A stretch of DNA of 64,000 bases from Pelagibacteraceae bacterium (lineage in GTDB: Bacteria; Pseudomonadota; Alphaproteobacteria; HIMB59), in contig BOYI01000003.1 of NCBI GenBank assembly GCA_019651435.1, positions 30,945 through 94,944 on the forward strand, read 5' to 3'. The translations under genes and the position numbers were made by a program. Below, one piece after another: positions 26,921 through 52,189 of this stretch (its first letter is position 1; every line of letters begins with the position of its first letter). A model generated the notes under the pieces. It did no database searches, was not told the DNA's origin, and saw nothing but the letters and a program-made list of their open reading frames with translations.

Positions 26921-28122
26921 GTGTTTGATTATATACAGTTATTTAAAGATAGACATCTTTTCAATCAATGCACAAATGAAAAAGAATTAAACGAACTTTT
27001 AAATAAAAAGAAAGTTACATTCTATATTGGTTTTGATGCTACAGCTGATGCTCTTCATGCAGGTAGTTTAGTTCAATTAAGAGCCATCAAAACTCTTATT
27101 AAACACGGGCATAAAGCTATAGTATTACTAGGTGGTGGAACTACTAAAATTGGTGATCCGTCAGGTAAAGATAGTGCTAGAAAAATTTTAACCTATGATG
27201 AAATTCAAAATAATATTGATAATTTTAAAAGAATATTTGAACACTATTTTAGAGATCACAAAGAAAGTATAACGTTTATAAACAATGATGATTGGTTAAG
27301 TAATTTAAATTACATTGAATTGCTCAGAGATGTAGGTAGCCATTTATCCATCAATAGAATGTTAACCTTTGAGAGCGTTAAAGAGAGATTAAAAAGAGAA
27401 CAATCCCTTTCTTTTTTAGAATTTAATTACATGGTTCTACAAAGCTATGATTTCTTCATTTGAACTTGCATCATCAATGTGACTTGCAAATTGGTGGTTC
27501 TGATCAATGGGGAAATATTGTTTTAGGTATGGAAATTATATCTAAGATAAATAAGAAAGATGCACATGGCTTAACAACACCTCTTTTAACCACGTCTTCT
27601 GGAAAAAAAATGGGAAAAACAGAACAAGGGGCTGTATGGATTGATCAACAAAAATATAGTTCTTATGATTTTTATCAGTACTGGAGAAACGTAGATGATA
27701 GTGACGTTGAGAAATTATTATTAATTTTCAGTGATTTAGAACAATCCGAAATTAAAGATTTAATAGCAAAAGATATTAATAATGCTAAAAAACGTCTTGC
27801 TTACTTAGTAACAACTGACTGTCATTCAGAAAATTCAGCTCAAGAAGCTGAAAATAAAGCAGTTTCTATATTTGAAAAAAAATCTCATGAAGACTTAGAG
27901 GAAATCGTCTTTGAAAATAAACAAGATATTAAAATTATAGATGCTCTTATTACCCACAAGTTAGTTCCATCAAAATCTGAAGCAAAAAGACTAATTGAGG
28001 GTGGAGGAATTAAAATCAATGACGATCAGATAAAAGATTTTAATTTTAATCTTAGCCAATCTAATCATGATGACATTTTAAAAATTGGTAAAAAAAAATT
28101 ATTTAAAATTAAATTTAATTAG
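26921..28122 (+). CDS. tyrS: Tyrosine--tRNA ligase (frameshift near 27455)
   Basis: YIGFDATADALHAG (HIGH), QIGGSDQWGNI, KMGKT (KMSKS), C-terminal S4 domain. Confidence 0.95.
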
Positions 28123-29131
28123 TCAGTAAATCAGAAATCGCTTTATTAATAAAATCTAAATCAGACTTGGTTTTACCCGCACCTGCATAGTGACCAAAAT
28201 CTGAAGGTATTGTTCTGAGCTCCCCATTTTTGATATCTCTTAATTCAATTTCATTATCCTCAGGTGGAAAATATAAATCGTTAATACCTGGCATTAATAT
28301 TGATTTTGCTGTTATAGAATTAAGAGCCAATGAAATATTTTTATTAAATTTTTCATTATTGCTGATGTCATGTTCTTGCCATGTTCTCATCATTGCGATT
28401 AAGTCATTCGCATCTCTATGATAATAGATTTTATTCCATAATTTATCTAAGACTTCTGAGGGGTTTTTATAACCATCATTTAAGTAGTTTTTATTACGAT
28501 ACCAATTTTGACCATGAGCCCACCCTGCCCATACTCTTGCCATAGTTGTTTTTCCTTTTTCCGGTTGTCTTTCATAATTTCCATTATTCCACTCAGGATC
28601 AGAAGTTAAAGCTGCATAAACTCCCTCTAAAAAACAAATGTATGATCAGTTGTTTTTGCATGTCCACACATAGAAATCATATTTTTAACCATATCTGGAA
28701 AATAAGAAGCCCATTGAAAGGCTTGTTGCCCGCCCATGGACCATCCAATGACCAACTTTAATTCATTAATGTCAAATACATCATTTAGAAGTTTTTTTTG
28801 GGCACAAACATTGTCAAAAATTGTAATTAATGGAAAATTTGGACCAGAAAAATTACTCTGCAGTATTACTTGGAGATGAAGAAACACCATTACAGAACAT
28901 ATTCGGTATGATGATAAAGTAATCATTAGGGTTAATTGGATAATCTTTATCGATCAAATAGCCTTGTTCAAGATGGGTTCCTGCATACCTTGTTGGAAAA
29001 AGAATTACATTAGATTTTTCAGCATTCAAATTTCCAAACGCTAAATAATTTAAATCTAAATCTATTTTAATTCCTGATTTTAATTGAAAATTTTCAAGGC
29101 GAAAATTCTTTAACTGCTCTTTTTCTACCAA
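28115..29131 (-). CDS. MetX (homoserine acetyltransferase)-like alpha/beta hydrolase, function unknown (frameshifted)
   Basis: Joined fragments: NVILFPT, GWSMGG (Ser), DLYFPP (Asp), FGHYAG (His); starts immediately after the stop of the upstream GS-like gene. Confidence 0.75.
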
Positions 29132-30530
29132 TTAAAATAACTTTAAATATTCTTTAATTTCCCAATCAGTCGTCGTTGTATGATATCGAGACCACTCATC
29201 ATATTTGTATCCAATAAAGTTATTAACCATAGCTTTAGAGAAAACTTGAGGTACTAATTTATCCTCTGCAAAAGCGTCTACAGCTTCAAGCAAGTTTCTT
29301 GGGAGACTAGTTACTTCTTTTTTTTCTTTTTCAGTTAAATCATACAAACTTTTATTAGTAGCTTTTGGTGGTTTCATATTTTTGTCAATTCCCTCTGTAA
29401 CTGCTGCTGCTAGTAAAGAAAATGTGAGGTAAGGATTTTGAGTTAAGTCTGAGGCTCTATTCTCTACACAGTATCTATTTTGAGGCAATCTAATCATCGC
29501 TGATCTGTTATTACTTCCATAAGTCATATGAGTTGGGGCCCAAGTGTGCCTTCCTCCATCCAACCCTTCCACCGTAGGTACGAAACCGTTATAGGAATTC
29601 ACAGTAGGGCAAGCAAGTGCTGTAATAGCTGCTCCATGTTTTAAAATTCCAGCAACAGCATTATATGCTTTAGATGAAAATTTATCTCCGTCTTTATAAA
29701 TATTGTTATTCTTCTTTTTTATTGAGGCTACGCTATGGTTGATATGAGCTCCTGAACGCCAATCACTGATTGTTGTTTTGGGCATAAAGGATACAAAATA
29801 TCCATATTTTTTTGCTATTTCCTTCAATAGAACTCTTAGAAAGACAAATCTATCCGCCATTCCAAGTATGTCTGTATACCCAAAATCTAATTCATATTGG
29901 CCATAAGCTCCCTCAGCAACTACGTCATGAAGATCCCATTTTAGATCATTGTTTAGAATATCAATAATCTCTTTTAAAAAATGCATACCGTCGATCGAAT
30001 ACTCAGAGTCATATCCAAATGCCTGTCTTCTAAGAGGTATCGGATCCCTGTCAATAGCTTTTACTGGTTTATCACCTTCCCATTTCATCAAAAAAAACTC
30101 AGGCTCTATTCCTACATAAAATTTTAAATCAGACTTTGCGGATTTTTGAATTTGTTTTTTTAATGTAAGACGTGGGCACACATCATAGGGTCTGTCATTC
30201 CAATACAAATCAGCAAATACCCATGCGCATGTCTTATCCCATGGACATATCATTAAACTATCTAAATCAGGAACTGGTATCTGATCATTATCTGCTGGGG
30301 TTAGTTCAGGGACAAAATGATACTGAATGCACAGCAAATTGTGGGCCTTTACCCATACATAAATCTTCAAAATCAGAAATTGGCATAGGTTTAGTCTTTG
30401 GACTTCCTAAAAAATCAATCCAATTAGAGTAAATGTATTTAACTCCTTTGGATTCTAATTTCTTTTTTAAATCTCTTACTTTTTTAATGCTAGGTAAAGC
30501 ATCTTTGATATGGTCTTTATAAACTCCCAC
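29132..30530 (-). CDS. Glutamine synthetase-family ligase (GlnT/GmaS-like, divergent; frameshift near 30315)
   Basis: GIEPEFF, GQYEL, SGAHINHS, NNRSAMIR, VENR, NPY motifs. Confidence 0.85.
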
Positions 30531-30670
30531 TTTGTCACTCCAATAAATTAATTTTCTTTTTAATTATATTTTCATAATGTAAAAATACCATTACATAATG
30601 AATATTAGTTATTTTAAAAAATCATGGATTAGATTTTATAAAAGAGGTTTTATGACTGGCTTTTTTTATA

Positions 30671-30847
30671 ATGACATTCATATTGGTTGTTGATCAATTT
30701 TTAGCAAACCCCTTATTTTTTAGCAAAATAACTAGCTTAGATGTATTCTTATTTATCCTATCTACAATTTTTTTTGGCTCAATTTTCTGTGGAATATTAT
30801 CTTTGATATTTCTTGTGTTTGTTGTTGTGGCAACAAAAGAAAAATAG
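30671..30847 (+). CDS. Small hydrophobic hypothetical protein (true start may lie upstream, ~30624-30652, across a frameshift)
   Basis: Manual translation MTFILVVDQFLANPLFFSKITSLDVFLFILSTIFFGSIFCGILSLIFLVFVVVATKEK; fills the gap between two minus-strand genes. Confidence 0.45.
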   Translation: MTFILVVDQFLANPLFFSKITSLDVFLFILSTIFFGSIFCGILSLIFLVFVVVATKEK

Positions 30848-31583
30848 CTAAGTACTTTTCAACCAATTTTCAATCTCAAGCTTTCTATTAAAATAATTTT
30901 CTTGCTCAAGTTGACTTAATAAAATCAATCTATTATCAAATTCATCATTGTTGAAAATTTTTAAGTAATTTTTTTTCCAATAATTCATTAATTTCCCAAT
31001 AAAATTAAAAGGTAATTCAGGGTGATATTGAGTGCAAAAAAATTTTTTATTTTTATGAGAAATCGATTGTATTGAAATTTCATTTTGTGAGATTATTTCA
31101 AATTCAGAATTAATTTTTTCTAAATGATCGTAATGATGACCTGGTGCAGTGAAATAATTTTTTTTGTTTTTCATAGACATAGTGATTTTTAATTATTTCT
31201 ATATTTTCAGCAAAACCAAATTCAAATTTTTCAGTTTTGGTAATTTTATCTCCATAACAAGTCGCTATAACTTGAAGACCCCAACAACTACCCCATAAAG
31301 GTTTATCTAATTTCAAAATTTTTTCACAAACTTTTAATTGGTTTTGATTATGTTGATTAGATAAATAAATATTTCCCAAACCACCTGTCCACATAAAGAC
31401 ATCATAGTCGTCATATGAAAAACTATTAATGTCATCTAAATAAGTATGGAGGACCCTAACCTCAGCATTAGGGTCTGTTTGTGTAATTATTTCTTTAAAA
31501 AAAGTATACTGAAATTGACTATTTGCCTTTTCATGTTCTAGATCATGGGACTCGTCCATGCCATTAACAATCAAATATTTCAA
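30848..31583 (-). CDS. Class I glutamine amidotransferase-like protein (possible gamma-glutamyl-amide hydrolase; frameshifted)
   Basis: WTGG, GSCWGLQ (nucleophilic Cys), QYHPE (His-x-Glu). Confidence 0.8.
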
Positions 31584-31807: not shown

Positions 31808-31981
31808 TTACTTGGTTTTCTTCGCTGTATCTGACTCGTGACGTGCTGCTAAAGCTGTAACAAGCACAAGTAAGGCAATACATAGAAGTGTCCAGAAAAT
31901 TAAAGTACCTTCGCTGTTAGCAGATGTAAAATAAGCATCTACACCTTCCCAGCTATTTTCAGGTCCTGGCCATGAATTCAT
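31808..31981 (-). CDS. Small single-TM protein (57 aa) co-transcribed with amt
   Basis: MNSWPGPENSWEGVDAYFTSANSEGTLIFWTLLCIALLVLVTALAARHESDTAKKTK; RBS GAAAGGA upstream; 20 bp after the amt stop; followed by a terminator. Confidence 0.7.
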   Translation of the reverse strand: MNSWPGPENSWEGVDAYFTSANSEGTLIFWTLLCIALLVLVTALAARHESDTAKKTK

Positions 31982-33496: not shown

Positions 33497-34801
33497 ATGA
33501 CAGTCAATCTTCATCAGTTTGCCAAAAAAAATGGCGTGAAATATTTTTTTGTTAGTTTCGTCGATCTGTTTGGTGTTCTCAGATCCAAGCTTGTTCCAGC
33601 AACAGCTATAGATGAAATCCAATCTGAAGGTGCTGGATTTGCAGGTTTTGCAACTTGGCTTGATATGTCTCCTGCCGACTCAGATATGTTCGGAATGCCG
33701 GATGGAGATAGTGTTATCCAATTACCTTGGAATAAAGAAATTGCTTGGGTGGCATCTGATCTTTATATGGACGGAAAACCCGTAGAAGCCTCTCCTAGAA
33801 TTGCACTTAAACGTCAAATTGAAAAAGCATCAAAAAAGGTCTTTATATGAAATCAGGTGTAGAATGTGAATTTTTCCTAGTCAGTCAAGATGGTACGGCT
33901 TTATCTGATGACAAGGATATCCAATCTAAACCGTGTTATGACTCTGCAGCTTTAATGAGAAGGTATGATGTTATCACTGAAATTTGTGACTCTATGATTT
34001 CTTTAGGTTGGGCTCCCTATCAAAATGATCATGAAGATGCAAATGGGCAGTTTGAAATGAATTGGGATTTCTCTGATTGTTTAATTACAGCTGATAGACA
34101 TGCTTTCTTTAAGTTCATGGTAAAATCAATTGCTGAAAAACATAATTTACGTGCAACTTTTATGCCTAAACCTTTTACACACCTAACAGGAAATGGCTGT
34201 CATTGCCACGTATCCGTATGGGATAAATCAGGAAAGAAAAATATGTTTTTAGATAAAAAAGATGAATTAGGATTATCTAAAACAGGTTATAACTTTCTTG
34301 GAGGAATTATGGAAAGTGCAGATAAAATGGCTGCAGTATTTAACCCCACTATCAACTCTTATAAAAGAATTAACGGAAGTGTGACTACTTCAGGTGCAAC
34401 TTGGTCTCCAAGTTCAATTACATGGGCTGGTAATAACAGAACCCATATGGTCAGAGTTCCAGGTGCTGGAAGATTTGAGCTAAGGTTGATGGATGGTGCC
34501 ACTAATCCTTACCTACTCCAAGCTGGTATTATGCTTCTTGGACTTGACGGTTTAAATAACAAAAGAGATCCAGGAAAAGATTAGATATCAATATGTACAC
34601 AGAGGGTCACAAGGCGGGAAAAGTGAAAAACTCCATCTAAACCTTCTAGATGCTATTAGAGATTTCGATAAATCAAAAATCATAAGAGCAGGTTTTGGGG
34701 ATGAGTTAGTAAATAGTTATGTAAAACTTAAAAACCAAGACTGGTCTACCTTTAACAAACACTTATCATCTTGGGAAAGAGAGACCACTTTAGATTGCTA
34801 G
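33497..34801 (+). CDS. gmaS: Gamma-glutamylmethylamide synthetase (GlnT-type; frameshifts near 33835 and 34580-34630)
   Basis: RSKLVPATAI...GAGFAGFATWLD, PCYDSAALMRRY, QNDHEDANGQFEMNW, TGNGCHCH, SGATWSP, NNRTHMVR, TTLDC terminus (all typical of GmaS); RBS AGAGGAG. Confidence 0.88.
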
Positions 34802-34820
34802 TAGATTTATCACCGAAGTA

Positions 34821-35359
34821 TTGCAAGAAAAATTTCTTGATTGGCAATGTCAGTCAAGAATGAATGCTTTTAGAACGCAAGGAGGTAGGCCCAACACCTC
34901 CATGACACCTTATTTATTAGATGATAAAGGCAACGAGTACGCTCAAATTATTGTTGTACTTGTAGAAAATGATTGTGAGGAGACGACAAGACTCTTTGAG
35001 TATAACTTTAAAAAACATATGATCCTGCCGAAAGATACGACAAGATTAATAAGTTTTTGTCATCTGAGTTCTTCTTAGATAAACATAAGTTTAGTGATGC
35101 TTTATTCGCCACATTTCCAAAAAAGAATAAATTTATCTCAACAATAGTAAAAAAAGGTAAGTGTATCTTGGACTTTATTCACCTCTCTACTAATTATCGA
35201 ATAGAGTGCACGCCTTTTATTTTAGATGAAGATGAAAATGCTTGGGAAAATGTTTTTTGGCATAATTTAAATTTTAACCCCGGTCTTAATAAAGACATAG
35301 ATGTAGTAAAATTTATTCCTAATTGGAAAAAATCTAAACTTATTAGAATTTCTGAATAA
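34821..35359 (+). CDS. Hypothetical protein downstream of gmaS (frameshifted)
   Basis: ORFs 34821-35078 and 35057-35359 overlap in different frames; FLDWQCQSR...GGRP and WHNLNFNP segments look protein-like. Confidence 0.65.
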
Positions 35360-35362
35360 AAA

Positions 35363-35390
35363 AAAAGGCGACTATAAATAGCCGCCTTTT
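35363..35390. terminator. Bidirectional intrinsic terminator between convergent operons
   Basis: AAAAGGCGACTAT-aa-ATAGCCGCCTTTT hairpin flanked by A/T tracts. Confidence 0.75.
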
Positions 35391-35411: not shown

Positions 35412-35891
35412 CTATTCGTTAAGCTTAAAGTTATCGCCTTTAACGTAAGTTTTCTTTAGGTGCAACTAAAGGATGACTTGAGGACATCTGGAACTTAATT
35501 AAAAGTTCTCTTGCTAGCATATCTCTTTCTTGCTGGCCTTTAGGTAGCTTCATTTTTGCTGGTACGGTAATCCAACCATTTGCATTTCTGTCAAAAACAG
35601 CTGGCTTGTCACCTTCATATCCCATATGGACATCTTCTAACCAGTTAAGATCATCCCAACCCATCGTCTCAATATATTTCTTCAAGAATGGTGTTAGTTT
35701 TTTATAATCAGGAATTAAATTACATCATATCGATAACCAATATGCTGTCCGATTGATTTTTCTCTTTCAGATTTAATATCCTTATCTTTTAACTTAGCGC
35801 CACCAACTGCTTGGTACTTTCCACCCTTTACACCTAAAGAGAATGACTTACTTGCTTTTTTTGTTTTAGTAGTTTTTTTTGCTTTTGCCAT
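35412..35891 (-). CDS. Hypothetical protein (~160 aa), last gene of the second GS/Mgs-like operon (frameshifted)
   Basis: ATG at 35891 with RBS AGGAGGAG; Lys-rich N-terminus, then GQHIGYRYD...MGWDDLNWLEDVHMGYE... Confidence 0.7.
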
Positions 35892-35899
35892 TTCTCCTC

Positions 35900-37234
35900 C
35901 TATATTGAATGGTAGTTTTTAACACCAACGGTCATATCGGTTCCTGCTAAAGGAACTTTTGCCATTGCTGAAGCTTCCATAGTTAAAGCTGCTAAATCTT
36001 CTGGCTCAAGTGAGTGAAGATTTGTTTTACCACAAGCTCTTGCCATTAACTGTGCTTCAAGTGTCATAGTGTTGAGCATGTTATAGACTCTTTCAGCTGC
36101 CTCAGTAGGATCTAATCTACTTCTAAGAACTGGGTCTTGAGTAGCTACACCAACTGGACATCTGCCTGTGTGACAGTGATAACAATATCCGGCTTCAACA
36201 CCCATTTCCTTTTCGAAATCAGCTTCAGGAATATCTTTGTTACAGTTAAGCGCTATAAGACCGGCTGTTCCAATAGCAATAGCATCTGCACCTAGTGCTA
36301 GAGCTTTAGCCATATCAACACCATCTCTAATACCACCAGCATAAACAAGTGTGATATCTCCTGATTTTCCAACATCATCAAGAGCTCTTCTTGCTTCTCT
36401 GACTGCACCAATACCAGGGATACCTGTATTTGCGGCTGCAACGTGTGGGCCTGCACCAGTTGAACCTTCCATAGAGTCTAAGAAAATAGAGTCAGGATCA
36501 CATTTAGCTGCCATTCTGACATCATCATAAACTCTTGAAGCTCCAAGTTTTAATTGAATTGGCACTTGGTTATCAGTAAGTTCTCTTAATTCAGCAACCT
36601 TTAATGCCAAATCATCTGGACCCATCCAGTCTGGATGTCTTGCAGGTGATCTTTGGTCAATACCAGCTGGTAAAGATCTCATCTCTGCAACCTGATCAGT
36701 AACTTTTTGACCCATTAAGTGTCCACCCATTCCAACTTTTTGACCTTGTCCAATAAACACTTCAATAGCATCTGCTAATTGAGCATGGTGAGGATTAAAG
36801 CCATATCTTGATTGGATACACTGGTAATACCATTTATTTGAGTATCTTCTCTCATCAGGAATCATACCACCTTCACCAGAACATGTAGCGCTACCTGCCA
36901 TAGTTGCTCCACGAGCTAAAGCAGTCTTTGCTTCATAAGATAAAGCGCCAAAACTCATACTTGTGATGTAGACAGGTATGTCTAATTTAATTGGGTTTTT
37001 AGCTCTAGGACCAATAACGGTTTCAGTTAAACATTTCTCACGATAGCCCTCGATAACAAAACGTGTAAGGGTTCCGGGAAGAAAAGTTAAATCATCCCAG
37101 TGAGGAATTTTTTTCATGAGAGCCATACCTCTCATTCTGTATCTTCCTAACTGCGCCTTAATATGGATATCATCCATGACGTCAGGAGTGAAGATTGCGT
37201 TTTTACCTAAAAGTGTAGTATTTCTTTTTGCCAT
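35900..37234 (-). CDS. FMN-binding glutamate synthase-family protein (MgsC/GlxD paralog 2)
   Basis: MSFGALS, SGEGG, GQGQKVGMGGHL, RHPDWMGPDDL, GGIRDG, CYHCHTGRCPVGVATQDP. Confidence 0.9.
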   Translation of the reverse strand: MAKRNTTLLGKNAIFTPDVMDDIHIKAQLGRYRMRGMALMKKIPHWDDLTFLPGTLTRFVIEGYREKCLTETVIGPRAKNPIKLDIPVYITSMSFGALSYEAKTALARGATMAGSATCSGEGGMIPDERRYSNKWYYQCIQSRYGFNPHHAQLADAIEVFIGQGQKVGMGGHLMGQKVTDQVAEMRSLPAGIDQRSPARHPDWMGPDDLALKVAELRELTDNQVPIQLKLGASRVYDDVRMAAKCDPDSIFLDSMEGSTGAGPHVAAANTGIPGIGAVREARRALDDVGKSGDITLVYAGGIRDGVDMAKALALGADAIAIGTAGLIALNCNKDIPEADFEKEMGVEAGYCYHCHTGRCPVGVATQDPVLRSRLDPTEAAERVYNMLNTMTLEAQLMARACGKTNLHSLEPEDLAALTMEASAMAKVPLAGTDMTVGVKNYHSI

Positions 37235-37242
37235 GTTTTCTC

Positions 37243-38083
37243 CTAACCTAATATTCCTTTTCTTTCACTTGGCTCTAAGTTGTCATAGTTCCAAAGCTTT
37301 TTACCAGCAACATATTTCTTAAATTTGCTAGCTGGTGTCTTTGAGTTGATCTCAGCATTGTTTAATTTCTGTTCAAGCCATCTCACTTCATATTCGTTCA
37401 TTTCGCCTTCGACACAGTCACTACCAAGAGATTTGACTTCACCGCCAACAAAAATCATACCGTCGTACATAGAGTCACCCATGTTTGCACTAACATCTCC
37501 GCAAACAATAATTCTTCCTCTTTGCATCATGAAGCCAGTAAATGCTCCAGCGTTTTCCACCAATAATGATAGTTCCGCCTTTCATATCAATACCAGTTCT
37601 TGCACCAGCATTACCTTTAACGATCAAATCGCCACCTCTAAGTGCAGCACCAAAACATGATCCGGCGTTATTTTCGACTAGAACTTTTCCTGCCATCATA
37701 TTTTCAGCACAGGACCATCCAACTCTACCTTTAACTCTAACAGTAGGGCCATCGATACAACCAATACCAAAATAACCTAAACTACCTTCAAATATGATGT
37801 TTAGCTTGTTTAGAATACCCACTCCAAGAGAGTGTTTTGCACCAGGATTTTTAATTACAACAGTTCCATAACCTTTTTTCATCGCATCTCTGATCTTTTG
37901 GTTAAGATCTCTTGCTTCTAGGTCTGTGCAATCAATTGAAGTTCTTTTATTAAAATCAACATCTACATTACCGTAATATGTATAGTTCTCTTCTTCAGTT
38001 GGATTAAAGAAAAGTTGTTGCGTTCTTCCAGTTAGATTTTCATCAGAAAAAGCTAAATTTTCTTTTTTTGCTATACCTGCCAT
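37243..38083 (-). CDS. GXGXG beta-helix subunit (MgsB/GlxC paralog 2; frameshift near 37555)
   Basis: Repeated GxGxG turns, AENMMAG, GIDMKGG, GDSMYDG; ~45 aa N-terminal extension. Confidence 0.85.
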
Positions 38084-39012
38084 ACTTTTACCTCCGCTTC
38101 ATATGGATCGTAAGTTTTAATTTCATGAGGGAAGATATTTCTAATCGCTACTTCCTCAGAGGCACATGCAACTATGTCTTTACTTTCATAAATCACCATT
38201 GGCTTAGCTGCCATATAGTCTTTTGCCATACCTAATTGATCTTTAGTTGCAACAACGTATGTAAAAACACCATCTAGCTCATCTAAACTATCATGCATTG
38301 CCTGTTCTAATTCAATGCCTCTTGCCATTTTATCAGCGATATAAACAGCAATAATTTCAGAGTCACAATTAGAATTGAAACGATAACCTTTTCTCTCCAA
38401 TACTCTTCTATTGCCCCAATAGTTAGTTAACTGACCATTGTGAACAACAGAGACGTCCTCAAAAGGGAAAGCCCAATAAGGGTGAGCAGATTTAATATCA
38501 ACATCTGACTCTGTAGCCATACGGGTATGACCGATACCATGAGTTCCCATGAATTTACCAAGACCATACTGATCTGCTACAGTTGTAGCGTCACCGAGAT
38601 CTTTGATTAATTCTAATCCTTTTCCGATTGATAATATTTCTGTTTTTTCAACAGTTTCAATTTCAGTTGCTAAATCAGTAAGATCGCCTTTGAAATCAAA
38701 TTCATATCGAAAAGCGTATGGAGTGCTGGAGCTTTGTTTGGTTACCTTTGCACCATGTTTTTTCATGATAGCGTCAACCTGACTTTTTCTATCCTTCAAT
38801 TGTTCTGGTGAGTCAATGACAGCATTGACCTTCTCAGCTTCGTTTTCTGAAATTTTAAATCTCATCACAAAGCCTTTTTTCTTTGGTGTACCATACATAG
38901 CATAACCAGTTGAGTCTGGGCCTCTATGTTTTAAACCCTGTAACATAAGACGCATTTGTTCGCCCACGTTTACAGTTTTCTTTCTATTAATTACTCCAGC
39001 TATTCCACACAT
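38071..39012 (-). CDS. Ntn (class II) glutamine amidotransferase subunit (MgsA/GlxB paralog 2)
   Basis: MCGIAG (Cys1 nucleophile), HRGPDS, GHTRMATES, HNGQL, CDSE. Confidence 0.9.
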   Translation of the reverse strand: MCGIAGVINRKKTVNVGEQMRLMLQGLKHRGPDSTGYAMYGTPKKKGFVMRFKISENEAEKVNAVIDSPEQLKDRKSQVDAIMKKHGAKVTKQSSSTPYAFRYEFDFKGDLTDLATEIETVEKTEILSIGKGLELIKDLGDATTVADQYGLGKFMGTHGIGHTRMATESDVDIKSAHPYWAFPFEDVSVVHNGQLTNYWGNRRVLERKGYRFNSNCDSEIIAVYIADKMARGIELEQAMHDSLDELDGVFTYVVATKDQLGMAKDYMAAKPMVIYESKDIVACASEEVAIRNIFPHEIKTYDPYEAEVKVWQV

Positions 39013-39033
39013 ACTTTTCTCCTTATATTGTTC

Positions 39034-40499
39034 TTATGGTAAGCAATCTAAATATTTATCAAGATCCCACTGAGTTGGAGTTGCTAGGAATTCTTCCCAT
39101 TCATCTCTCTTGTATTCAGTGAATACTCTTAACATGTCTCCTGGTAAGGCACCTTGAATAAGTTTATCTTTATCTAACTTGTCAAGTGCTTCGCCCAGTG
39201 TCATAGGTAATTTTTCTTTACCGGCATTAGCTTCATACATATTTGCCTGCTCTGGCTTACCTGGATCCATTTTTTCTTCAATTCCATGACCAAATGCAGC
39301 CAATAAACCAGAACCCATGAGGTAAGGATTATGAGCTGAGTCAACAGAACGATATTCAAATCGACCTGGTGCTGAAACGCGAAGACCACAGGTTCTATTC
39401 TGATAACCCCAGTCAGCATAAACAGGAGCCCAGAAACCAGCATCCCATAATCTTCTGTATGAGTTAACAGTTGATGAACCTAAAGCTGTAAGAGCTGGTA
39501 AGTGTTCCATAACACCACCGATAGCCCAAAGACCAATTTGACCAGGGATTTTTCTATCATCTGTATCAGGCATGAATACGTTTTCACCGCCTCTTCTGTG
39601 GTGATAAACTTGCTCCATTCCTGGGAGCGCTTTTGTATCATTACCGCATGGGATAATTTGATCCTCTCCATCTCTCCATAATGAAATATTCGTATGACAA
39701 CCTGAAGCTGAAACTCCAACAAAAGGTTTTGATAAGAAACATGCAATCAGATTAAACTCTCTAGCAACCTGAGCACAGATTTGACGATAAGTAGACAATC
39801 TGTCCGCGTTTCTTAATACATCATCAAAGTTAAAGTTTAGCTCTAATTGACCAGGTGCATCTTCATGGTCACCTTGAATAATATCAAGACCCATAAATCT
39901 GGAGTATTCAATTACCTTCATGTAAACAGGTCTTAAAGACTCAAATTGGTCAATGTGATAACAATAAGGTTTTGAGAAACCAGAACCTGTTGGAGTGCCG
40001 TCTTCATTTTTTGTAAGCCACATCATTTCTGGCTCAGTACCAGCTCTCAACTCTAAACCGTGTTTATCTTTGAACTCCTGGTGAGCTCTTTTTAAATTTC
40101 CACGACAATCAGAAGTTAAATAACCACCTGGATCATTTTCTTCTTCTCTGTTTCTAAAACAAGTACAGAAAACTCTGGCAATTCTTTTGTCCCAAGGAAG
40201 TTGAACAAAGGTTTCAGGATCTGGGATACCTACAAGCTCATGTGCCTCCGGTCCATATCCAATATAATCACCATTTCTGTTAGTGAATAAATTAGCAGTT
40301 GATCCATAAACCAACTGGAAGCCTTTCTGCGCAACTGTTTCCCAGTGATCAGCTGGGTAACCTTTACCTACAATTCTTCCAGTAACAGAAATAAATTGGA
40401 AATAGATATATTCAATACCTAATTCTTTAATTTTACTTCTGACTTTTTTACATTTTCATTTCTTTCTTTGTCTGCAACGTACGTTTCTAATGCTGTCAT
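39034..40499 (-). CDS. Glutamine synthetase-family ligase, divergent (frameshift near 40445)
   Basis: ATG at 40499 (MTALETYV...YIYFQFISVTGRI); GTEPEM, HEDAPGQLEL, SGCHTN, NSYRRL, QNRTCGLR, FEYRSVD. Confidence 0.88.
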
Positions 40500-40517
40500 A
40501 ATTATTCCTCCTTTACA

Positions 40518-41859
40518 TCAGCTCCAAGGGAACGGGCTATTTGAGACCGGATGTAACTTCCCTTCTTCATATCGAGAAAATCTGAAAGGTTCTAGAATTT
40601 CAGACTTATTTCCCATTACTTCGTCAGATACTAAATCGCCAACACCAGCCATTTTATATCCATGATTTGCGTCTGCTATAATATAGACGTTTTCTCTGTA
40701 TTGGTCGAATACTGGAAAACGATCAGGTGTCACACAACCAATACCGCCAGCTTTTTGCTTTTTGTATTTAGCATGACATCCGTCAAACTGCTTCTGACAA
40801 AAAGCCATAGCAGAAGTAAATTTATCTTCAAATGCTGCACGAGGTTGAAATTCGTCAGATTTTGACCATAAGGGTCGATGTTAACTTCATTAGCAGGTTT
40901 AGTGACATCATACGGAGATGAACCGCCTTGAATTCCATTTCTATATACGTCAGGCTTGTAATAAAAACCCCACATCTCATTTTCATGAATAACATCACCT
41001 GTTTTGTTTGAAACTAAAGTTGACTCTGTATCAACATGGATAACAGGATATTCCGTTCCTTTTGAAGTTCGATAGCTGTGAGGATCGACATCTAGCTCAC
41101 CTTCTTCTAAAGCCATATAAGACCACATTGGAATTTCATCAGTAAACGTTCCATCAGGTTGTTTTATTTTAACAGACTTAGGAAGATCAAGCATTTCCCA
41201 AAAAGTTCTTACCCAAGGACCTGCAGCCACAACTAGTTGTGTACATTCGATAGTTCCTTGATTAGTTTCTACAGCACTAACCGCCCACTGCCATTAGCTG
41301 TAACTAAATTAGTAGCTTGAACACCTTCAAGAATTTTTGCACCAGCTGCCTCTGCTAGTTTTTTGAAACCTAAATTAGCTCCTCTATTTGGACCATAGCC
41401 AGAATTTTTTTCATGAAGAACAGAAGTAATGCCCTGTGCTTGCCAATCTGGTAAATCTTTCATGTACTTATCGCAATCCGCTGCACCCTCAATAAAAGTA
41501 GAATCGTATCCAATTTCTTTTTGTTGACTGTAAACTTCTGCCATTCCTTCGTGCATCAATTGAGAATTGATTTGCATGTAACCGACAGGTCTAAATTGGA
41601 GAACTTCAGCATTAGAGTTCCATACATCAACTGAATGAGCCATTAATCTTCTCATTGCAGGTTGGTAATAATTATTTCTAACGATACCACAAGCTACACT
41701 AGTGGCACCTTCACCAACTTGTGTTTTTTCGATAACGACAACTGAATCTTCTTTCAGTTGACCTTTGCTAGATAATTTTTTGCATAAATGCCATGCTGTA
41801 CTTAAGCCGTGGATACCACCTCCAATGATAAGGTATTCACATTTTGACGGTAAACTCAT
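40518..41859 (-). CDS. FAD-dependent oxidoreductase, DAO/sarcosine-oxidase-beta-like (frameshifted)
   Basis: IIGGGIHGLSTA dinucleotide fold, GATSVACG.VRNNY, AAGPW, TPDRFP, HGYKMAG. Confidence 0.85.
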
Positions 41860-41918
41860 CTTATTAACCTCCGGTTCGAAATATATTTTGATCTTGGTTT
41901 AATGAAAAAACACTAATC

Positions 41919-41977
41919 GTTTCAAATTATGAAACAAATTTTAGATGCAAAAACTTTTTTGTTTCAAATTATGAAAC
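41919..41977. promoter_or_regulatory. Tandem palindromic operators GTTTCA-aatta-TGAAAC (two identical copies, 41919-41935 and 41961-41977)
   Basis: Exact 17-bp direct repeat of an inverted repeat, 42 bp apart, upstream of the FAD oxidoreductase/GS/Mgs-like operon. Confidence 0.8.
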
Positions 41978-41996
41978 AATTTTAAATTTATAGTCC

Positions 41997-42767
41997 TTAG
42001 TTATCAACAATAAGCTTAGATATTTTGATTGATGCGCTTTGTAACAGCTTAACATAGTCAATTGTGTTTTTAGGATTCATGATATTTCTGCTTCCTGATA
42101 ATGAGATTCCCGCGAATGACCTCTTATCTTTGTCAAGAATAGCCACGCCTATACCGTAAGTATTCTCATAGGCCTCTCCATGGTTCAAGGAGTACCCTTG
42201 TGTTCTAATTTTAAGTAATTGTTTTTTTTAAATCGGTTAAATTTTGGATAGTGTTTGTTGTATGAGGAAAAAAATTATAACTTTTATAAATTGAAGAAAC
42301 TTCATTTTCAGGCCTATAAGCAAGCATTACTTTTCCTAAAGCACAACAATGAGCATCCATTCTCATTCGAAAAGTTCGATGCGAGGCGTCGCTATTGACA
42401 TGAGATATTTTATCAGAATGAACTATTTGCGATCCCTCAAGCATAGCAAGATAAGTAATTAAATTAGTTTCGTTTGATACCTCTTCTAATATTTCCTTAG
42501 AAGTTTCAGAAATTGATTGAAGATAATCGGAGGTTTCACCAAATTGAAAAGCTTTATGCCCCATAGTGTAAGTATTTGATGAGTTATTTTTATGGATATA
42601 ACCTAGTTGAGTTAAAACAAATAATAGTCGAAAGGTTGTTGTTCGAGACATAGATGCTTTGCGAGAAATTGCTGCAGCTTTTAGGGGAAAATGGACTTTG
42701 ATAATATTTCTAAAATCTTAAATGATTTTTCTAATGACTTATTAATATATTTTAAATCACTGGTCAT
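41997..42767 (-). CDS. IclR-family transcriptional regulator (frameshifted)
   Basis: SLEKSFKILE...SRTTTFRLLFVL..LGYI HTH; HCCALGKVMLA and GISLSG effector-domain motifs. Confidence 0.85.
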
Positions 42768-42784: not shown

Positions 42785-42801
42785 ATTTCACTTTGTGAAA
42801 C
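42785..42801. promoter_or_regulatory. Operator-like ATTTCA-ctttg-TGAAAC upstream of the IclR gene
   Basis: One mismatch to the GTTTCA-N5-TGAAAC motif; 18 bp before the IclR start codon. Confidence 0.6.
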
Positions 42802-42835: not shown

Positions 42836-44123
42836 TTATAAGAATTTATTTTCGAGATTTTCTTTAAAACGATAATACCAGCCAAGAAGAGGTAAAAATT
42901 TAATAATAAAAAATTTGAAATAGTTTTTTTCATTCTTAATTTTTGAAATGACAAGATTGCTATTTTGATTTGTAGTAATCATATTTGCGGCTTGATAACC
43001 AAGATAAGGCATAAGAGCCACACCGGCTACCATTACATCCCAAAACAAAAATTTTATTATTTGTTTTTTTAACCATGGGAAGAGTATTGAAAGTAACACC
43101 TACTTTACCACCCCAAATGTAATCAATCGAAAAATTCTCAATTTTTGGCAAGATTATGTTTATTTTCTTATAAAAAAAAGATTTCACCATTTTGCTATTT
43201 TCCATTCCATAGGCCCAAACAGGAAATGCTCCAAACAATATTCTCTTGTGATCTGGAGATGGGCGAAAATAATACAAGTCGTTTTTACTATCGGAATACA
43301 TTCGTAATTTTGGCAAAAGTTTTTGGACCTTCTCTTGCCCTAATATATTTGTTGCAGCGATATAAGATGGCACACCAATGATATTATAATGTTCATTTCC
43401 AATATCTTTTTCTGAGTAACCATTCGTAGCTATAATAAGATATAGCGTTTTAATCTTACCCTCTGAAGTTTTTAGTTCATAAAATTCATCTTTTTTTTGA
43501 TGCGATAAAAGTTTACAAGGACTAAAAATATCAACTTTATTTGAAAGAGCTTTGTCTAAAAAAAAATTATACAGCTTGGCAGGATTAACACTGGCAGCAT
43601 TTTTAACCAGCATCCCTCCTTTATAATAGTTATTAATAATTTCGTTATCTAAGTTTTCAATTATTTGAATTTGTAAATCTGATAAAGAATTAAGAAGTTT
43701 TGTTTTTTGTCTCAATGCATCTAATTTTTTTTTACTATGAGCCAAAACTAATCTTCCTGTTTTTTGATAGGATACTTCCTCTAAATGATGATTTATTTGG
43801 TCCTCCAAATACTCATATGATCCTATGGACTCTTGAATAAACTTCTTAGCAAGATCTTCCCCATAATCTTTAAAAAGATTAATTTTTTTTCCTAAATTCA
43901 AACCCCCTGAGACCATTCCAGCACTTCTAGTGCTTGCGCCCTCTCCTAATGCCAATTGGTCAATGAGAAGAGTTTTTAGACCTTTTGAAGAAGCTTGGAT
44001 GGCAGCGCTTACACCTGTATATCCTGCTCCTACGACTACTAAGTCGTATGAAGAATTTGAAACTTGAGTATTTTGAAAGTGATATGGTTTATAAAATTCC
44101 CACCAATATGGATAAGTTTTCAA
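42836..44123 (-). CDS. FAD-dependent oxidoreductase, PuuB/OrdL-like (frameshift near 43025)
   Basis: PYWW N-terminus, VVGAGYTGVSAA, GASTRSAG, ATNGY, YYFRPSPD.RILFG, GCNG. Confidence 0.8.
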
Positions 44124-46995: not shown

Positions 46996-47589
46996 TTAAA
47001 CTCCTTCGTAGCCGAATTCTAGAGCAGCATCGGTAATGCTATGATAAAAGGAACCACCAAAACTGCGAAGTGCATATAGGCGAATAGTTTTAGGGTCATT
47101 ACTAATGAAATCAATTAAAATATTAATTCCATTGTAAGTGGTATTAGCACAATTTCCCTCTTTAAAAATATTTTCATTAACATTTAAAGGGGAGCCTTTT
47201 TTAATAACGTCCAAAGTATGGGTTCCCTTAATTTCAACTGTAGCTCTGGAATGAGAAAGATCAGTAATTGCAAAATCATTATCATTACATGCAGAAGAAA
47301 TAAGGTTTTTTAGGTTAGAGTTAGTCGAAATACAAAGCCAAGTCTCAGGACCAATCCACAATATTCTTATATTCTCGTTTGCAGAAATTAATGGGTTTTC
47401 TTGAGGTAATGACAACCCATCAATTTTAATTTGATTTGATTGAACATCGCTTTTTCTAAACTTAGCTACTTGAAAAATTGATAAGTTCTTGATTTCAGAA
47501 ATTTTCAAAAGATCTTGCTTATTTTCATGATCTCCAAATAAACCAATTTTATGGTCAAATTGTAAAGCAGAAATATTTGTATCACTCAT
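46996..47589 (-). CDS. soxG: Sarcosine oxidase-family gamma subunit (N-methylglutamate dehydrogenase D)
   Basis: LWIGPETWL, TDLSH, LRSF, DAALEFG; fourth gene of the BDAG cluster. Confidence 0.85.
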   Translation of the reverse strand: MSDTNISALQFDHKIGLFGDHENKQDLLKISEIKNLSIFQVAKFRKSDVQSNQIKIDGLSLPQENPLISANENIRILWIGPETWLCISTNSNLKNLISSACNDNDFAITDLSHSRATVEIKGTHTLDVIKKGSPLNVNENIFKEGNCANTTYNGINILIDFISNDPKTIRLYALRSFGGSFYHSITDAALEFGYEGV

Positions 47590-47590
47590 T

Positions 47591-50590
47591 TTATGACCTT
47601 ACCCTCTCTCCTTTAGGATCGACATAATGGGAAGAAACCACCTCTACAGGAATTGAAATATCTTTAAGTGGAGAAACAGCAATTAATTGTTTTCCAATTT
47701 GTTTCTTTCCATCTTTTAAAATTGCAATTGAAAATGGGTTGTTGTATTCCACACTCCAACAAGATGAAGATACATGTCCTAATTTTGGAATAGGAGTTGG
47801 GGCTTTATCATCAACTACTATATGTGAACCTTCAGGTATTTTACTTTTTTTATCAACTGGGACTAGTCCAACAATTGTTTGTCTATCTTCACTTACAAAA
47901 GCATCTTTTGATAATGATCTTTTACCAATGAAATCTTTTTTTTGACTAACCATTCCATTTAATCCAACATCGTATGGGATGTTTCTTCCATCTAATTCTG
48001 GACCAGCAACGTGACCCATCTCTATTCTCAAAGTCGATAAGGCCTCTGTTCCGTATGGCTGAACACCAAACTCAGAACCTACATCCATAATTTTTTTCCA
48101 TAAATGAAGACCGTAATTTGACTCGACATTCACTTCGAAAGCAAGCTCACCAGAAAATGAAATTCGATAAATTCTTGCTGGAATATCACCTAGTTTTGTA
48201 TCAACGAGACCCATAAAAGGAAGACCTTCATTAGATAAATCAACATCAGGGAATAATTTTGATAAAAGCTCTCTGGACTTAGGTCCTGCAACCGCTACTC
48301 CTGCCCACTGCTCTGTTGTTGACAAAACATTAACATCAAGTTCAGGCCAAACAACTTGAAGATAATATTCTAAATGAGAGAGTACGTTTGCCGCCTGTGC
48401 TGTAGTGGTAGTCATATGAAAATGATTTTCTGAAAGTCGAGATGTGGTTCCATCATCAAAAACCATACCATCTTCTCTTAACATCACTCCATAACGTGCC
48501 TTACCTACTGGAAGTTTAAGCCAGGCATTGGTATAAACTCGGTTTAAAAATTCTGGCGCATCTGGGCCTTTAATATCTATTTTTCCAAGTGTAGTAACAT
48601 CACAAATACCAACATTTTTTCTAACATTAGCTGCTTCTCTATTAACAGCATCATTCATTGTTTCTGTTCCTCTTGGGTAGTATCGAGGTCTGACCCATAA
48701 GCCTGCAGCAACAAAAACAGCGTTATTTTCTTCATGCCAAGTATGAACTGGAGATTTACGTGTTGGAAGATAATGATTTCCAACTTCACGACCAACAATT
48801 GTACCAATTGTGACTGGCGTATATGGTGGACGGAAAGTTGTATGCCCTACTTCTGGAACAATCTTCTTTTCAATATTTGATACATATTGAAGACCGTTTA
48901 AGTTACTTGTTTTACCCTGATCACCAGCCATACCTAAAGTAGTGTAGCGTTTAACATGTTCAATGGATCTAAATCCCTCTCTAAGTGCCAACTCTACATC
49001 TGAAACTGCAACGTCATTTTGAAAATCTATAAACCTTTTTGGTTTTTGACCATTTGGTAATGGCATGCACCAGAGTTTTTCATGAGGTTTTTGATCAGGC
49101 TCATTTGAGATTGGTGTGTCAGTCTTAATGTCGTTTGAAGTAAACTTATTAGAAAGTTCAAAACCTACTTGAAAACCTTCCGCTAATGATTGGTCTAAAG
49201 TAAAGGCTCCATTGGCAGAGCCAACGGCAGTTTCTTTTTGTCTTTTTTTATCAGGAACAAACGCATCAATGTCTTCGTTAAATTTTAATTTATTTCCTGC
49301 TTGCGAAGAAAGGTGAACAGTAGGTGTCCAACCACCGGACATACAAATACAATCACAATCAACTTCTTCAAGAGAGATAAAATTTTCTTTTTGATTATCT
49401 AAAGTACCAATGGTAGCAGATTTAATTTTTAAATGACCTTTAGTATTAGCTATGCCTGAATTAAATCTTATGTTGATACCTTGTTCTTGAACTTCTTTGA
49501 CAAGTTGGCCATCAGAGTTATCTCTAGTATCAACAATGATTGGTTTGATATCGTTTTTGATAAATTCTAAAGCAGTAGCGTAAGCAGAGTCATTATTAGT
49601 GAAAATTATTGGCTTCTTACCTACAAGAGTTTCATATACCTTCATGTATTCCCTTGCAGCAGAGGCAAGGAATATGCCTGGTCTGTCGTTATTTCCAAAA
49701 GAAATCGGTCTTTCAATAGAACCTGTAGAAACAATTACTTCACCTGCCCTTATATAGTGTAGTCTTTGGCGAGGTGTGTATTTAGAGGAGTTTTCAAGAT
49801 GATCGCTTACTCTTTCAAACATCACAGTCATGTTATGGTCATAATAACCAAATACTTGAGAGCGATTTTTGACAACAACATTAGGCATATTTTTGAGCTG
49901 TGAGATCACATCACTTGCCCACTCTCTTCCTGACATATTGCCAATGGTCACGTCATCGTTTAATAGCGAACCTCCAAAATGAGCCTTATCTTCAGCAAGA
50001 ATAACCCTTGCACCATTTTTGGCAGCCGCTAGCGCACTTGATAATCCTGATGGTCCAGATCCAACTACTAAAACATCACAATGCTCATAGTTATGTTCAT
50101 ATCTATCAGGATCGGGCGACAGGGGGGCTACGCCCATACCTGCAGCTTTACGAATAAATGGTTCATAAACTTTAAACCAAAAACTTTTTGGCCACATAAA
50201 AGTTTTGTAATAAAAACCTGCTGGGAAAAAACGATTTAAAATATTGTTTATCTCTCCGATATCAAATTTTACAGATGGCCAACAGTTTTGACTTTTAGCT
50301 TTTAAACCTTCAACTAATTCAACTTCAGTAGCCATGATATTAGGCTCAGAGCGGTCACCCTCATGAAGTTGAACCATTGCATTTGGTTCTTCTACCCCTG
50401 CCCCTAAAAAGCCACGAGGTCGATGATATTTAAAACTTCTACCGACTAAATGAATGCCATTAGCAATTAAAGCTGAAGCAAGTGTATCACCCTCATAACC
50501 TTGATAGGAGTCTCCATTAAATGTGAAGTTAATAATTTTTTCTTTATTGACTAAACCTTTGGAGTTTGAAGTTCTATATTGATTACTCAT
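47591..50590 (-). CDS. soxA: Sarcosine oxidase-family alpha subunit (N-methylglutamate dehydrogenase C)
   Basis: GDTLASAL, RSFKYHRPRG, AGFYYKTFMWP, EHVKRYTT.GM..DQGK, C-terminal GcvT/folate domain. Confidence 0.93.
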   Translation of the reverse strand: MSNQYRTSNSKGLVNKEKIINFTFNGDSYQGYEGDTLASALIANGIHLVGRSFKYHRPRGFLGAGVEEPNAMVQLHEGDRSEPNIMATEVELVEGLKAKSQNCWPSVKFDIGEINNILNRFFPAGFYYKTFMWPKSFWFKVYEPFIRKAAGMGVAPLSPDPDRYEHNYEHCDVLVVGSGPSGLSSALAAAKNGARVILAEDKAHFGGSLLNDDVTIGNMSGREWASDVISQLKNMPNVVVKNRSQVFGYYDHNMTVMFERVSDHLENSSKYTPRQRLHYIRAGEVIVSTGSIERPISFGNNDRPGIFLASAAREYMKVYETLVGKKPIIFTNNDSAYATALEFIKNDIKPIIVDTRDNSDGQLVKEVQEQGINIRFNSGIANTKGHLKIKSATIGTLDNQKENFISLEEVDCDCICMSGGWTPTVHLSSQAGNKLKFNEDIDAFVPDKKRQKETAVGSANGAFTLDQSLAEGFQVGFELSNKFTSNDIKTDTPISNEPDQKPHEKLWCMPLPNGQKPKRFIDFQNDVAVSDVELALREGFRSIEHVKRYTTLGMAGDQGKTSNLNGLQYVSNIEKKIVPEVGHTTFRPPYTPVTIGTIVGREVGNHYLPTRKSPVHTWHEENNAVFVAAGLWVRPRYYPRGTETMNDAVNREAANVRKNVGICDVTTLGKIDIKGPDAPEFLNRVYTNAWLKLPVGKARYGVMLREDGMVFDDGTTSRLSENHFHMTTTTAQAANVLSHLEYYLQVVWPELDVNVLSTTEQWAGVAVAGPKSRELLSKLFPDVDLSNEGLPFMGLVDTKLGDIPARIYRISFSGELAFEVNVESNYGLHLWKKIMDVGSEFGVQPYGTEALSTLRIEMGHVAGPELDGRNIPYDVGLNGMVSQKKDFIGKRSLSKDAFVSEDRQTIVGLVPVDKKSKIPEGSHIVVDDKAPTPIPKLGHVSSSCWSVEYNNPFSIAILKDGKKQIGKQLIAVSPLKDISIPVEVVSSHYVDPKGERVRS

Positions 50591-50855: not shown

Positions 50856-50858
50856 GAT

Positions 50859-52170: not shown

Positions 52171-52189
52171 TGTTTCATAATATGAAACA
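52171..52189. promoter_or_regulatory. Palindromic operator TGTTTCA-taata-TGAAACA in the divergent soxB/tmm promoter
   Basis: Perfect 7-bp arms; same motif as 41919-41977. Confidence 0.75.

Follow-up and report, generated by a model that had tools for sequence, protein, structure and literature searches.

A second glutamylation module in a Pelagibacteraceae genome, a candidate for the missing step of dimethylamine degradation

The module and its genes

We analyzed a 64,000-nucleotide stretch (the window) of contig BOYI01000003.1 from the Pelagibacteraceae bacterium assembly GCA_019651435.1, and within it a gene set at 35412–42767, here called the module, that joins a glutamine synthetase (GS)-like ligase to a glutamate-synthase-like enzyme. 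The module is real, intact and widespread, and no stronger candidate is at present in view for the missing step of dimethylamine (DMA) breakdown. The original prediction had placed a tightly packed six-gene operon here, and this was borne out: seven minus-strand genes lie at the predicted position, iclR and then six genes that family scans order as FAD2, GS2, Ntn2, GXGXG2, FMN2 and Hyp2. Intergenic gaps from FAD2 onward are 18, 21, −13, 8 and 8 nt, none above 21 nt. Each start from FAD2 to Hyp2 follows a GGAG(G) ribosome site, read from the sequence.

41997–42767, minus strand: iclR, IclR-family regulator (PF01614/PF09339); two assembly frameshifts; 76–93% to the intact IclR of relative L001
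40518–41859, minus strand: FAD2, DAO-family flavoprotein (PF01266), SAR11_1304 type by gene order; 448 aa in relative L001
39034–40499, minus strand: GS2, GS-fold amine:glutamate ligase (PF00120), SAR11_1305 type
38071–39012, minus strand: Ntn2, class II (Ntn) amidotransferase subunit (PF13522/PF13537), MgsA paralogue, has Cys1
37243–38083, minus strand: GXGXG2, beta-helix subunit (PF01493), MgsB paralogue
35900–37234, minus strand: FMN2, glutamate-synthase FMN/Fe-S subunit (PF01645), MgsC paralogue, SAR11_1308 type
35412–35891, minus strand: Hyp2, small protein with no Pfam family, SAR11_1309 type

Single-base frameshifts (35459, 35721, 37553, 40443, 40862, 41284, 42222 and 42683) split five of the seven genes. 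Illumina contigs supply the compensating base at each position, from as many as four independent studies with two runs of DNA and two of RNA, and every module open reading frame (ORF) is intact in L001. We therefore take the frameshifts to be assembly errors, and reject a pseudogene reading. Single-base indel errors are common across the compared stretches of window positions 14400–42900, so split ORFs there are not to be read as pseudogenes. In two metatranscriptomes, contigs spanned the module in 30/30 and 25/30 bins, versus 27/30 and 12/30 for a control stretch; the runs were chosen by the module, and expression is not something that contigs can demonstrate, so these figures are not used as evidence.

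Divergence from the N-methylglutamate pathway

The known N-methylglutamate pathway consists of GmaS, MgsABC and MgdABCD (Methyloversatilis, Methylocella, Ruegeria pomeroyi SPO1573-1576/1585-1588; SAR11_1313-1316). The module resembles it in the GmaS catalytic set of its ligase, in a split Ntn/GXGXG/FMN synthase encoded in the same order, and in occupying the same gene islands, here with an operator common to mgd and tmm. It differs by adding a DAO flavoprotein and a small protein that is strictly conserved, in many loci a split-barrel protein as well, and its shared components are only 30–50% identical to the canonical ones and fall in separate clades. Between the intact L001 copies, identity is 30% for GS2 and GmaS, 32% for Ntn2 and MgsA, 40% for GXGXG2 and MgsB, and 50% for FMN2 and MgsC. 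The proteins had been predicted to be clearly distinct from the canonical copies, and the phylogenies agree, with GS2 and FMN2 each forming its own clade. By score or tree, GS2, FMN2 and FAD2 are outside the GmaS, MgsC and sarcosine-oxidase families.

GS2 scored 291 bits against the GmaS profile TIGR03105, below the 469.6 cut-off, and was likewise below the GlnA and PuuA-type cut-offs (TIGR00653, 249 vs 429; NF045547, 214 vs 650). In the ligase tree the GmaS clade has support 98, and GS2 with a sister clade forms one branch (support 99) far from GmaS. Residues K30', Y147, Q175, D177, E179, E186, N188, W300, R312 and R317 of RhGmaS are kept in 34/34 GS2 orthologues. They include the catalytic Asp177 and Glu186, the amine pocket (Tyr147/Gln175/Glu179/Asn188/Lys30') and Trp300 in the Glu-flap position, the flap residue being Trp and not the glutamate of GlnA. 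Fixed changes (Y174I, N176G, N182P, H237N) adjoin catalytic and pocket residues, and GS2 has a ~10-residue insertion near the Asp50' loop; the aligned Asp50' column is D or N, in a region where the alignment is unreliable. RhGmaS turns over DMA with a Km of 16 mM, against 27 µM for monomethylamine (MMA), according to the accessible part of PMC7948447; glutamylation of DMA is thus chemically possible and canonical GmaS is poor at it. We propose that GS2 is a gamma-glutamyl-dimethylamide synthetase.

Ligases of the sister clade (51–61% identity to GS2, support 99) pair with a degenerate GS-like partner in 6/6 loci, with a P450 in two (L083, L119). Around these ligases (L082, L083, L116–L120) the partner lacks R312 and D177, and P450, ferredoxin, polyamine-type ABC transporter or dioxygenase-like genes are nearby, as are class I glutamine amidotransferase genes. 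This partner has a degenerate GS fold, which ruled out FAD2 as its homologue. The sister-clade ligases likely serve the catabolism of other amines. Piperidine, a secondary amine, is reportedly glutamylated by PipA/PipB1/PipB2 in Pseudomonas KU43P, and Ipu is said to act on isopropylamine. The sister-clade layout (ligase, degenerate GS partner, P450 in two loci) resembles the layout reported for pip, whereas the module has neither a P450 nor a second GS, and has an Mgs-like synthase instead.

The three synthase subunits have the Ntn/GXGXG/FMN order, Cys1, HNG and Fe-S cysteine motif by which MgsABC is recognized. C2, HNG and other core residues are invariant in both the Ntn2 and MgsA sets, and the cysteine motif of FMN2 is CYHCHTGRCP. 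In a tree of 29 FMN2 and 12 MgsC rows the two groups lie on opposite sides of one branch (support 99). FMN2 differs from MgsC at 53 fixed positions and Ntn2 from MgsA at 22, a degree of divergence that suggests a changed substrate.

FAD2 is a remote DAO-family protein with no folate-binding domain (best PDB match E 4e-10). It scored far under the sarcosine-oxidase cut-offs (TIGR01377, 50.5 vs 479.65; TIGR01373, 66.1 vs 529.45). The dimethylglycine dehydrogenase/sarcosine oxidase pair, in the same DAO superfamily, is a model for two-step demethylation; FAD2 differs from it in those scores and in the missing folate-binding domain. We propose that FAD2 is an N,N-dimethylglutamate demethylase. The original prediction counted this flavoprotein as part of the module, which holds here and in the 26 of 32 class-sample loci with room (the sample is described below) where FAD2 adjoins GS2; it is not obligatory, as four carriers show (see Proposed route and alternatives). 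FAD2 was found in only one of 10 Dmm genomes searched.

Relatives and the SAR11 counterpart

The best 80 loci from species genomes came from uncultured marine Alphaproteobacteria and Pelagibacteraceae. Ntn2, GXGXG2, FMN2 and Hyp2 follow GS2 in 68/68 loci with room. In SAR11-type loci the gene order is tmoX, tdm, flavoprotein, glnT, ..., gltB2, hypothetical, amt, glxBCD, glnT, and tdm is less than 1 kb upstream of FAD2 in 51/54. The source genome (G000) and the SAR11-type genome G353 belong to different orders. Between tdm and FAD2, 50 of the 54 SAR11-type loci have a gap of 400–500 nt; a conserved 115-aa ORF without a Pfam match fills it, read in four loci (e.g. L014:8111-8458). In the window itself, family scans placed tdm, tmm and soxA/soxB above curated cut-offs, together with gmaS, mgsABC, tmoXVW and amt; two of these features matter for what follows.

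55404–57755, minus strand: tdm, trimethylamine N-oxide (TMAO) demethylase, the DMA source (NF053776, 1157 bits, cut-off 1100)
46996–52115, minus strand: soxBDAG, mgd-type (TIGR01373 and TIGR01372 above cut-off)

The soxBDAG set likely encodes Mgd, though Mgd and true sarcosine oxidase are not separable here.

Locus tags SAR11_1302-1316 of Ca. Pelagibacter ubique HTCC1062, as far as given in the accessible parts of Sun 2011 and Smith 2013 (PMC3870248), show the same order as the SAR11-type loci. We therefore equate the module with SAR11_1304-1309, which lie between tdm/tmoX and amt; this is by order and annotation, not by alignment. SAR11 loci differ in having no iclR, operator or Hyp184 (see below). 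Prior annotation as glnT/glxBCD had been anticipated; the module genes are indeed annotated in SAR11, as sox, glnT and gltB2, and glxBCD-glnT turns out to be the canonical set.

In the accessible parts of the SAR11 papers, SAR11_1304 is proposed as a general amine demethylase (PMC3870248, PMC5520151), SAR11_1305 is called a class III glutamine synthetase, and the DMA route is left open (PMC3870248); the two genes are discussed individually, not as a set forming a pathway. Lidbury 2017 (PMC5520151), in the text available, reports no SAR11 with dmmDABC, proposes a metabolic bottleneck, and reads that bottleneck as explaining DMA-rich marine aerosols. Gao 2022 (PMC8918994, accessible part) describes weak growth of HTCC1062, which has no dmm, with TMAO as sole nitrogen source, and postulates an isoenzyme. 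We found no published function for the set in the accessible literature (subscription papers and supplements lay outside its scope); the available text of PMC7574528, PMC12075776 and a 2026 TmaR paper is silent on it.

Known DMA enzymes in the source genome

The absence of dmmABC from the window had been noted, and a genome search extended it. Neither G000 (69% complete) nor G028, a complete genome of the same genus, yielded a DmmC or DmmB orthologue, and neither gave a match to a trimethylamine (TMA) or DMA dehydrogenase. The sole PF11927 (DUF3445) gene of G000 (G000:C4:29667-30164, L081) scored 51 bits, gave no tblastn match to DmmC and has no reductase alongside. It is flanked by transporter-like and dipeptidase-like genes, and the same stand-alone gene is in G028. 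We rejected it as a hidden Dmm, this contig C4 match being a stand-alone distant homologue. A gene like the beta subunit of dimethylformamidase (DMFase) was also noted in G000 (C1:246077-247399, 308 bits).

The module and Dmm exclude each other among tdm carriers

Two samples were surveyed, a class sample of 400 genomes and a sample of family f88 in which each genus has one genome, 250 in all besides the centre genome. In the class sample, tdm counted as true from 760 bits upward; G099, a 61% fragment, was kept as well. Paralogues and unclear matches below 700 bits were dropped (class G233, G236, G263, G344, G368; f88 G236, G476, G489, G560, G576, G593), as were G081 (a lone ligase without the cassette) and the 51% sister paralogue of G451. 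DmmC was called from PF11927 with an adjacent reductase and a dmmD-like gene upstream, and not from the R. pomeroyi sequence.

A GS2 orthologue was found in 35/400 class genomes, and the full core in 33 of the 34 loci with room. Among the 27 true tdm carriers of this sample, 22 have the module, four have DmmC with its reductase, none has both and one has neither; only 12 of the other 373 class genomes have the module. The f88 sample gave the same picture, with 38 of 63 true tdm carriers having Dmm only, 24 the module only (23 with GS2, plus G487 with FMN2 at a contig edge), none both and one neither. The predicted co-occurrence with tdm and anti-correlation with dmm are thus both seen. The two genomes with neither system are also without MgsC and FMN2, which suggests assembly gaps.

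On an RpoB tree of 57 f88 tdm carriers and an outgroup (one gene, quick search), which leaves out five f88 genomes without RpoB and G550, there were nine state changes, eight of them forced by starred branches. The tree held eight independent pairs (sign test p 0.008–0.016). A PF11927 match in G320 (267 bits) was rejected as Dmm, with 27% identity to DmmC and no reductase alongside.

The same split recurs with another DMA source. G097, without tdm, encodes a TMA-dehydrogenase (TMADH)-type enzyme (996 bits) at a distance of 12 kb from its ligase gene. This enzyme has Tyr60, Ser74 and Trp105, residues that we take to mark TMADH rather than DMA dehydrogenase. An enzyme of this type with these residues is in 5/400 class genomes, four with the module and one with DmmC ~200 bp away.

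DmmDABC (PMC5520151, accessible part) has the job proposed here for the module, and is found in the same tdm/tmm/mgd islands, in a different slot in the loci compared. There is no homology between the two. Dmm, a heme monooxygenase, requires O2 and NAD(P)H and releases MMA in free form, whereas the module would draw on ATP and flavins, with N-methylglutamate as its product.

Canonical MgsC is often absent from module carriers

Dmm releases MMA, so Dmm genomes should need MgsABC. Canonical MgsC was present in all 21 Dmm genomes checked (15/15 searched and 6/6 in fetched loci), a hand-picked and mostly well-assembled set, as were the genomes checked for FAD2. By contrast, it was present in only 26 of 59 module carriers and absent from 33, several of the carriers without it being nearly complete. 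Within f88 the figures were 14/24 module carriers versus 19/19 Dmm genomes (p 0.001; related genomes are not independent). With the module present, the MMA synthase seems to become dispensable. Because MgsC is so often absent in carriers, a route that skips free MMA is favored; the pattern fits N-methylglutamate as product, or a module that accepts MMA too.

An operator palindrome near iclR

The 1.35-Mb genome contains three exact copies of the palindrome GTTTCA-N5-TGAAAC, where base composition would predict 0.16. These copies and two looser ones lie as follows.

41961–41977: operator, distal copy before FAD2, exact match
41919–41935: operator, proximal copy before FAD2, exact match
52172–52188: operator between the divergent mgd-type soxBDAG and tmm, exact match
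42785–42801: operator site upstream of iclR, one mismatch
62253–62269: operator-like site before tmoX, two mismatches, weak

The sequence GTTTCATAATATGAAAC matches the IclR group-1 palindrome consensus GKTYCRYW3-4RYGRAMC (given in the accessible part of PMC8222616) and lies near the iclR gene. The site before FAD2 is present in 14/14 related loci that carry iclR, and in 0/6 SAR11-type loci. IclR is likely the protein that binds it, and the module may be co-regulated with the TMA genes through this common operator. A motif shared by the module, tmm, mgd and tmoX had been predicted; it stands for FAD2 and mgd/tmm, where the sites are exact, and is weak at tmoX. Elsewhere iclR is usually replaced by a GntR gene; 26/32 class loci have a regulator. 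One-mismatch copies were also seen at G000:C3:131305 and 136683, ahead of a gene for a tripartite tricarboxylate-type binding protein and ahead of one resembling a serine/aspartate-glyoxylate aminotransferase (names by eye); these are candidates for the same regulon or for that of another IclR.

Travelling and neighboring genes

Hyp2 was present in 68/68, 33/34 and 6/6 loci with room, at 65–82% identity. It has no Pfam family and no Atlas lead, and its best structural Z was 2.6, which does not demonstrate a new fold. It is a candidate accessory subunit. Downstream of Hyp2 the window holds a convergent gene absent from the original prediction.

35358–35390, between convergent Hyp2 and Hyp184: hairpin with A/T tails on both sides, read from the sequence
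34795–35359, plus strand: Hyp184, convergent accessory gene, PNPOx-like split barrel; two frameshifts, corrected in Illumina contigs

The hairpin is likely a bidirectional terminator. Hyp184 is in 21/32 class loci and 6/6 family-f88 loci, and absent from SAR11 loci. Its model (pLDDT 96) matched PNPOx-like proteins in Foldseek (E 4.5e-4), indicating an FMN-binding split barrel; the fold search gave no support to an Atlas lead to PBECR4. A role in flavin supply would be a guess from this model.

All six family-f88 loci (L137, L139, L140, L142, L144, L146) have a nitrilase-family amidase between Hyp2 and Hyp184, best matching deaminated-glutathione amidase below cut-off, which may repair deaminated glutamyl amide. 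A divergent soxBDA set, its SoxB 42–46% to that of the window, was noted near the module in L093, L094, L109, L113 and L219, and is a candidate alternative demethylase.

Four further observations concern the window. Directly after tdm, 54200–55393 (minus strand) encodes a GcvT-like folate-binding protein with ~27% identity to the dmmD-like genes found in dmm operons; it is a candidate formaldehyde-to-tetrahydrofolate (THF) trap for FAD2 or Tdm. Between mgsC and iclR, 42960–44123 (minus strand) encodes a DAO-family flavoprotein matching L-pipecolate oxidase weakly (106 bits, cut-off 600); among close relatives, this gene has that position in the window, L012 and L121 only. A third glutamylation-type set at 28115–31583 (minus strand) comprises a class I glutamine amidotransferase, a GS-like ligase in which the DHED motif of GmaS is missing, and an alpha/beta hydrolase that is MetX-like (PRK07581 type), its ligase and amidotransferase being kept in close relatives. 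At 31808–31981 (minus strand), directly after amt, we read a 57-codon ORF with a hydrophobic stretch, then a hairpin.

Proposed route and alternatives

We hold with good confidence that DMA is the substrate of the module; of the substrates put forward in the original prediction, the evidence favors DMA and not ethylamine or ethanolamine. For the chemistry, we judge the odds a little better than even that the module is an oxygen-independent DMA route that runs via N,N-dimethylglutamate to N-methylglutamate and replaces DmmABC. GS2 would join glutamate and DMA with ATP to give gamma-glutamyl-dimethylamide, trapping the diffusible amine. Ntn2, with its Cys1, would hydrolyze the amide, and DMA would be channelled through GXGXG2 to FMN2, where it would combine with the 2-oxoglutarate skeleton to an iminium that is then reduced to N,N-dimethylglutamate. 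If FMN2 cycles on glutamate, as N-methylglutamate synthase does, ammonia would be freed at this step. FAD2 would demethylate the tertiary amine to N-methylglutamate, much as dimethylglycine is converted to sarcosine; where FAD2 is missing, a SoxBDAG paralogue may do so instead. Mgd would finally turn N-methylglutamate into glutamate and methylene-THF. No free methylamine would form along the way, which would make GmaS/MgsABC optional.

Several points weigh against this route. Twelve of the 34 class-sample carriers are without true tdm: three have TMADH, two have DMFase-family genes (in G204, two genes from Hyp2), one has a tdm paralogue, and six are drafts with no DMA source seen. Since the DMFase family is present in several copies, and in G000 as well, its genes make weak evidence. 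Four tdm-positive, Dmm-negative carriers, among them a single-contig genome, keep the other module genes but yielded no FAD2. G471 keeps gmaS without mgsC, and loss of MgsC equally fits a module that handles MMA. A SoxB-family gene is in 58/59 module carriers, where Mgd and Sox are not separable. The route also supposes iminium chemistry with a secondary amine on an MgsC-type domain. In nitrogen-limited HTCC1062, according to the accessible part of PMC3870248, SAR11_1304 went up while SAR11_1305 and SAR11_1308 went down, to 0.67 and 0.66, so the module genes are not one nitrogen-scavenging unit in that strain. The makeup of the Dmm calls and the hand-picking of the Dmm genomes, both described above, belong here too.

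Four other explanations are taken in decreasing order of probability. The first, which we consider unlikely, has DMA handled by other chemistry: the glutamyl amide itself would be demethylated, to gamma-glutamylmethylamide or to free MMA, and the Ntn2/GXGXG2/FMN2 set would be a second N-methylglutamate synthase, possibly for DMA and MMA. The exclusion of Dmm and the loss of MgsC fit it equally, as does G471, and the neighbors of the sister-clade ligases include genes for a P450, an ABC transporter and a class I glutamine amidotransferase, in what looks like a protect-then-oxidize layout. However, hydride transfer to flavin from an amide N-methyl is unfavorable by established chemistry, the module itself has no P450, and the fixed differences of FMN2 and Ntn2 from MgsC and MgsA suggest that the substrate has changed.

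Rather more doubtful is that FAD2 by itself turns DMA into MMA, as an oxidase or dehydrogenase, with GS2-Ntn2-GXGXG2-FMN2 acting on this MMA as an isozyme of GmaS/MgsABC. This would suit the published proposal for SAR11_1304, the rarity of FAD2 in Dmm genomes and the frequent absence of MgsC from carriers. It sits badly with the four carriers that keep every other module gene without FAD2, and with the presence of both synthase sets in 26/59 carriers, including streamlined genomes in which duplicates are rare. An MMA isozyme would also give no reason for the exclusion of Dmm, with both systems in 0/63 and 0/27.

We give little credence to a module that degrades some other small amine, whether ethylamine, a product of betaine breakdown, or a secondary amine that is cyclic or N-methylated, and that tracks tdm solely through a shared niche and shared gene islands. 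The six carriers with no DMA source seen would fit, and so would the varied amine-catabolic settings of the sister clade, with their polyamine-type ABC transporters; the module has no transporter of its own to define the substrate. But this leaves unexplained the exclusion of Dmm over at least eight switches and the same split among TMADH carriers, and equally the position behind tdm in SAR11 and the shared operator.

Very improbable is that an enzyme outside the operon performs the DMA step, or that DMA is excreted, with the module biosynthetic or for nitrogen storage: the bottleneck argued by Lidbury 2017, the weak growth on TMAO nitrogen and the 69% completeness of G000 would allow it, but the complementarity is near-perfect, with only 1/63 and 1/27 DMA producers having neither system, both suggestive of assembly gaps since MgsC and FMN2 are missing too. 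Among the cluster ORFs covered by the family scans, none resembles an ACAD-fold flavoprotein.

Significance

The route through N,N-dimethylglutamate would be a third way of degrading DMA besides Dmm and DMA dehydrogenase. It would be ATP-driven and oxygen-independent, with an undescribed metabolite, N,N-dimethylglutamate, and a synthase that reductively aminates 2-oxoglutarate with a secondary amine, and most DMA consumed by SAR11 and other streamlined ocean bacteria would pass through it; our judgment of this full account tips only just in its favor. If the module is a DMA route, surveys for dmm only would much underestimate DMA-consuming capacity, because the module outnumbers Dmm 22 to 4 among class tdm carriers. 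For the DMA route postulated as an isoenzyme in the accessible part of PMC8918994, it names genes and predicts a new intermediate. The module is likely the missing way of DMA breakdown in SAR11 and other abundant ocean bacteria; if so, the published SAR11 bottleneck in the metabolism of DMA, a precursor of marine aerosols, would be removed.

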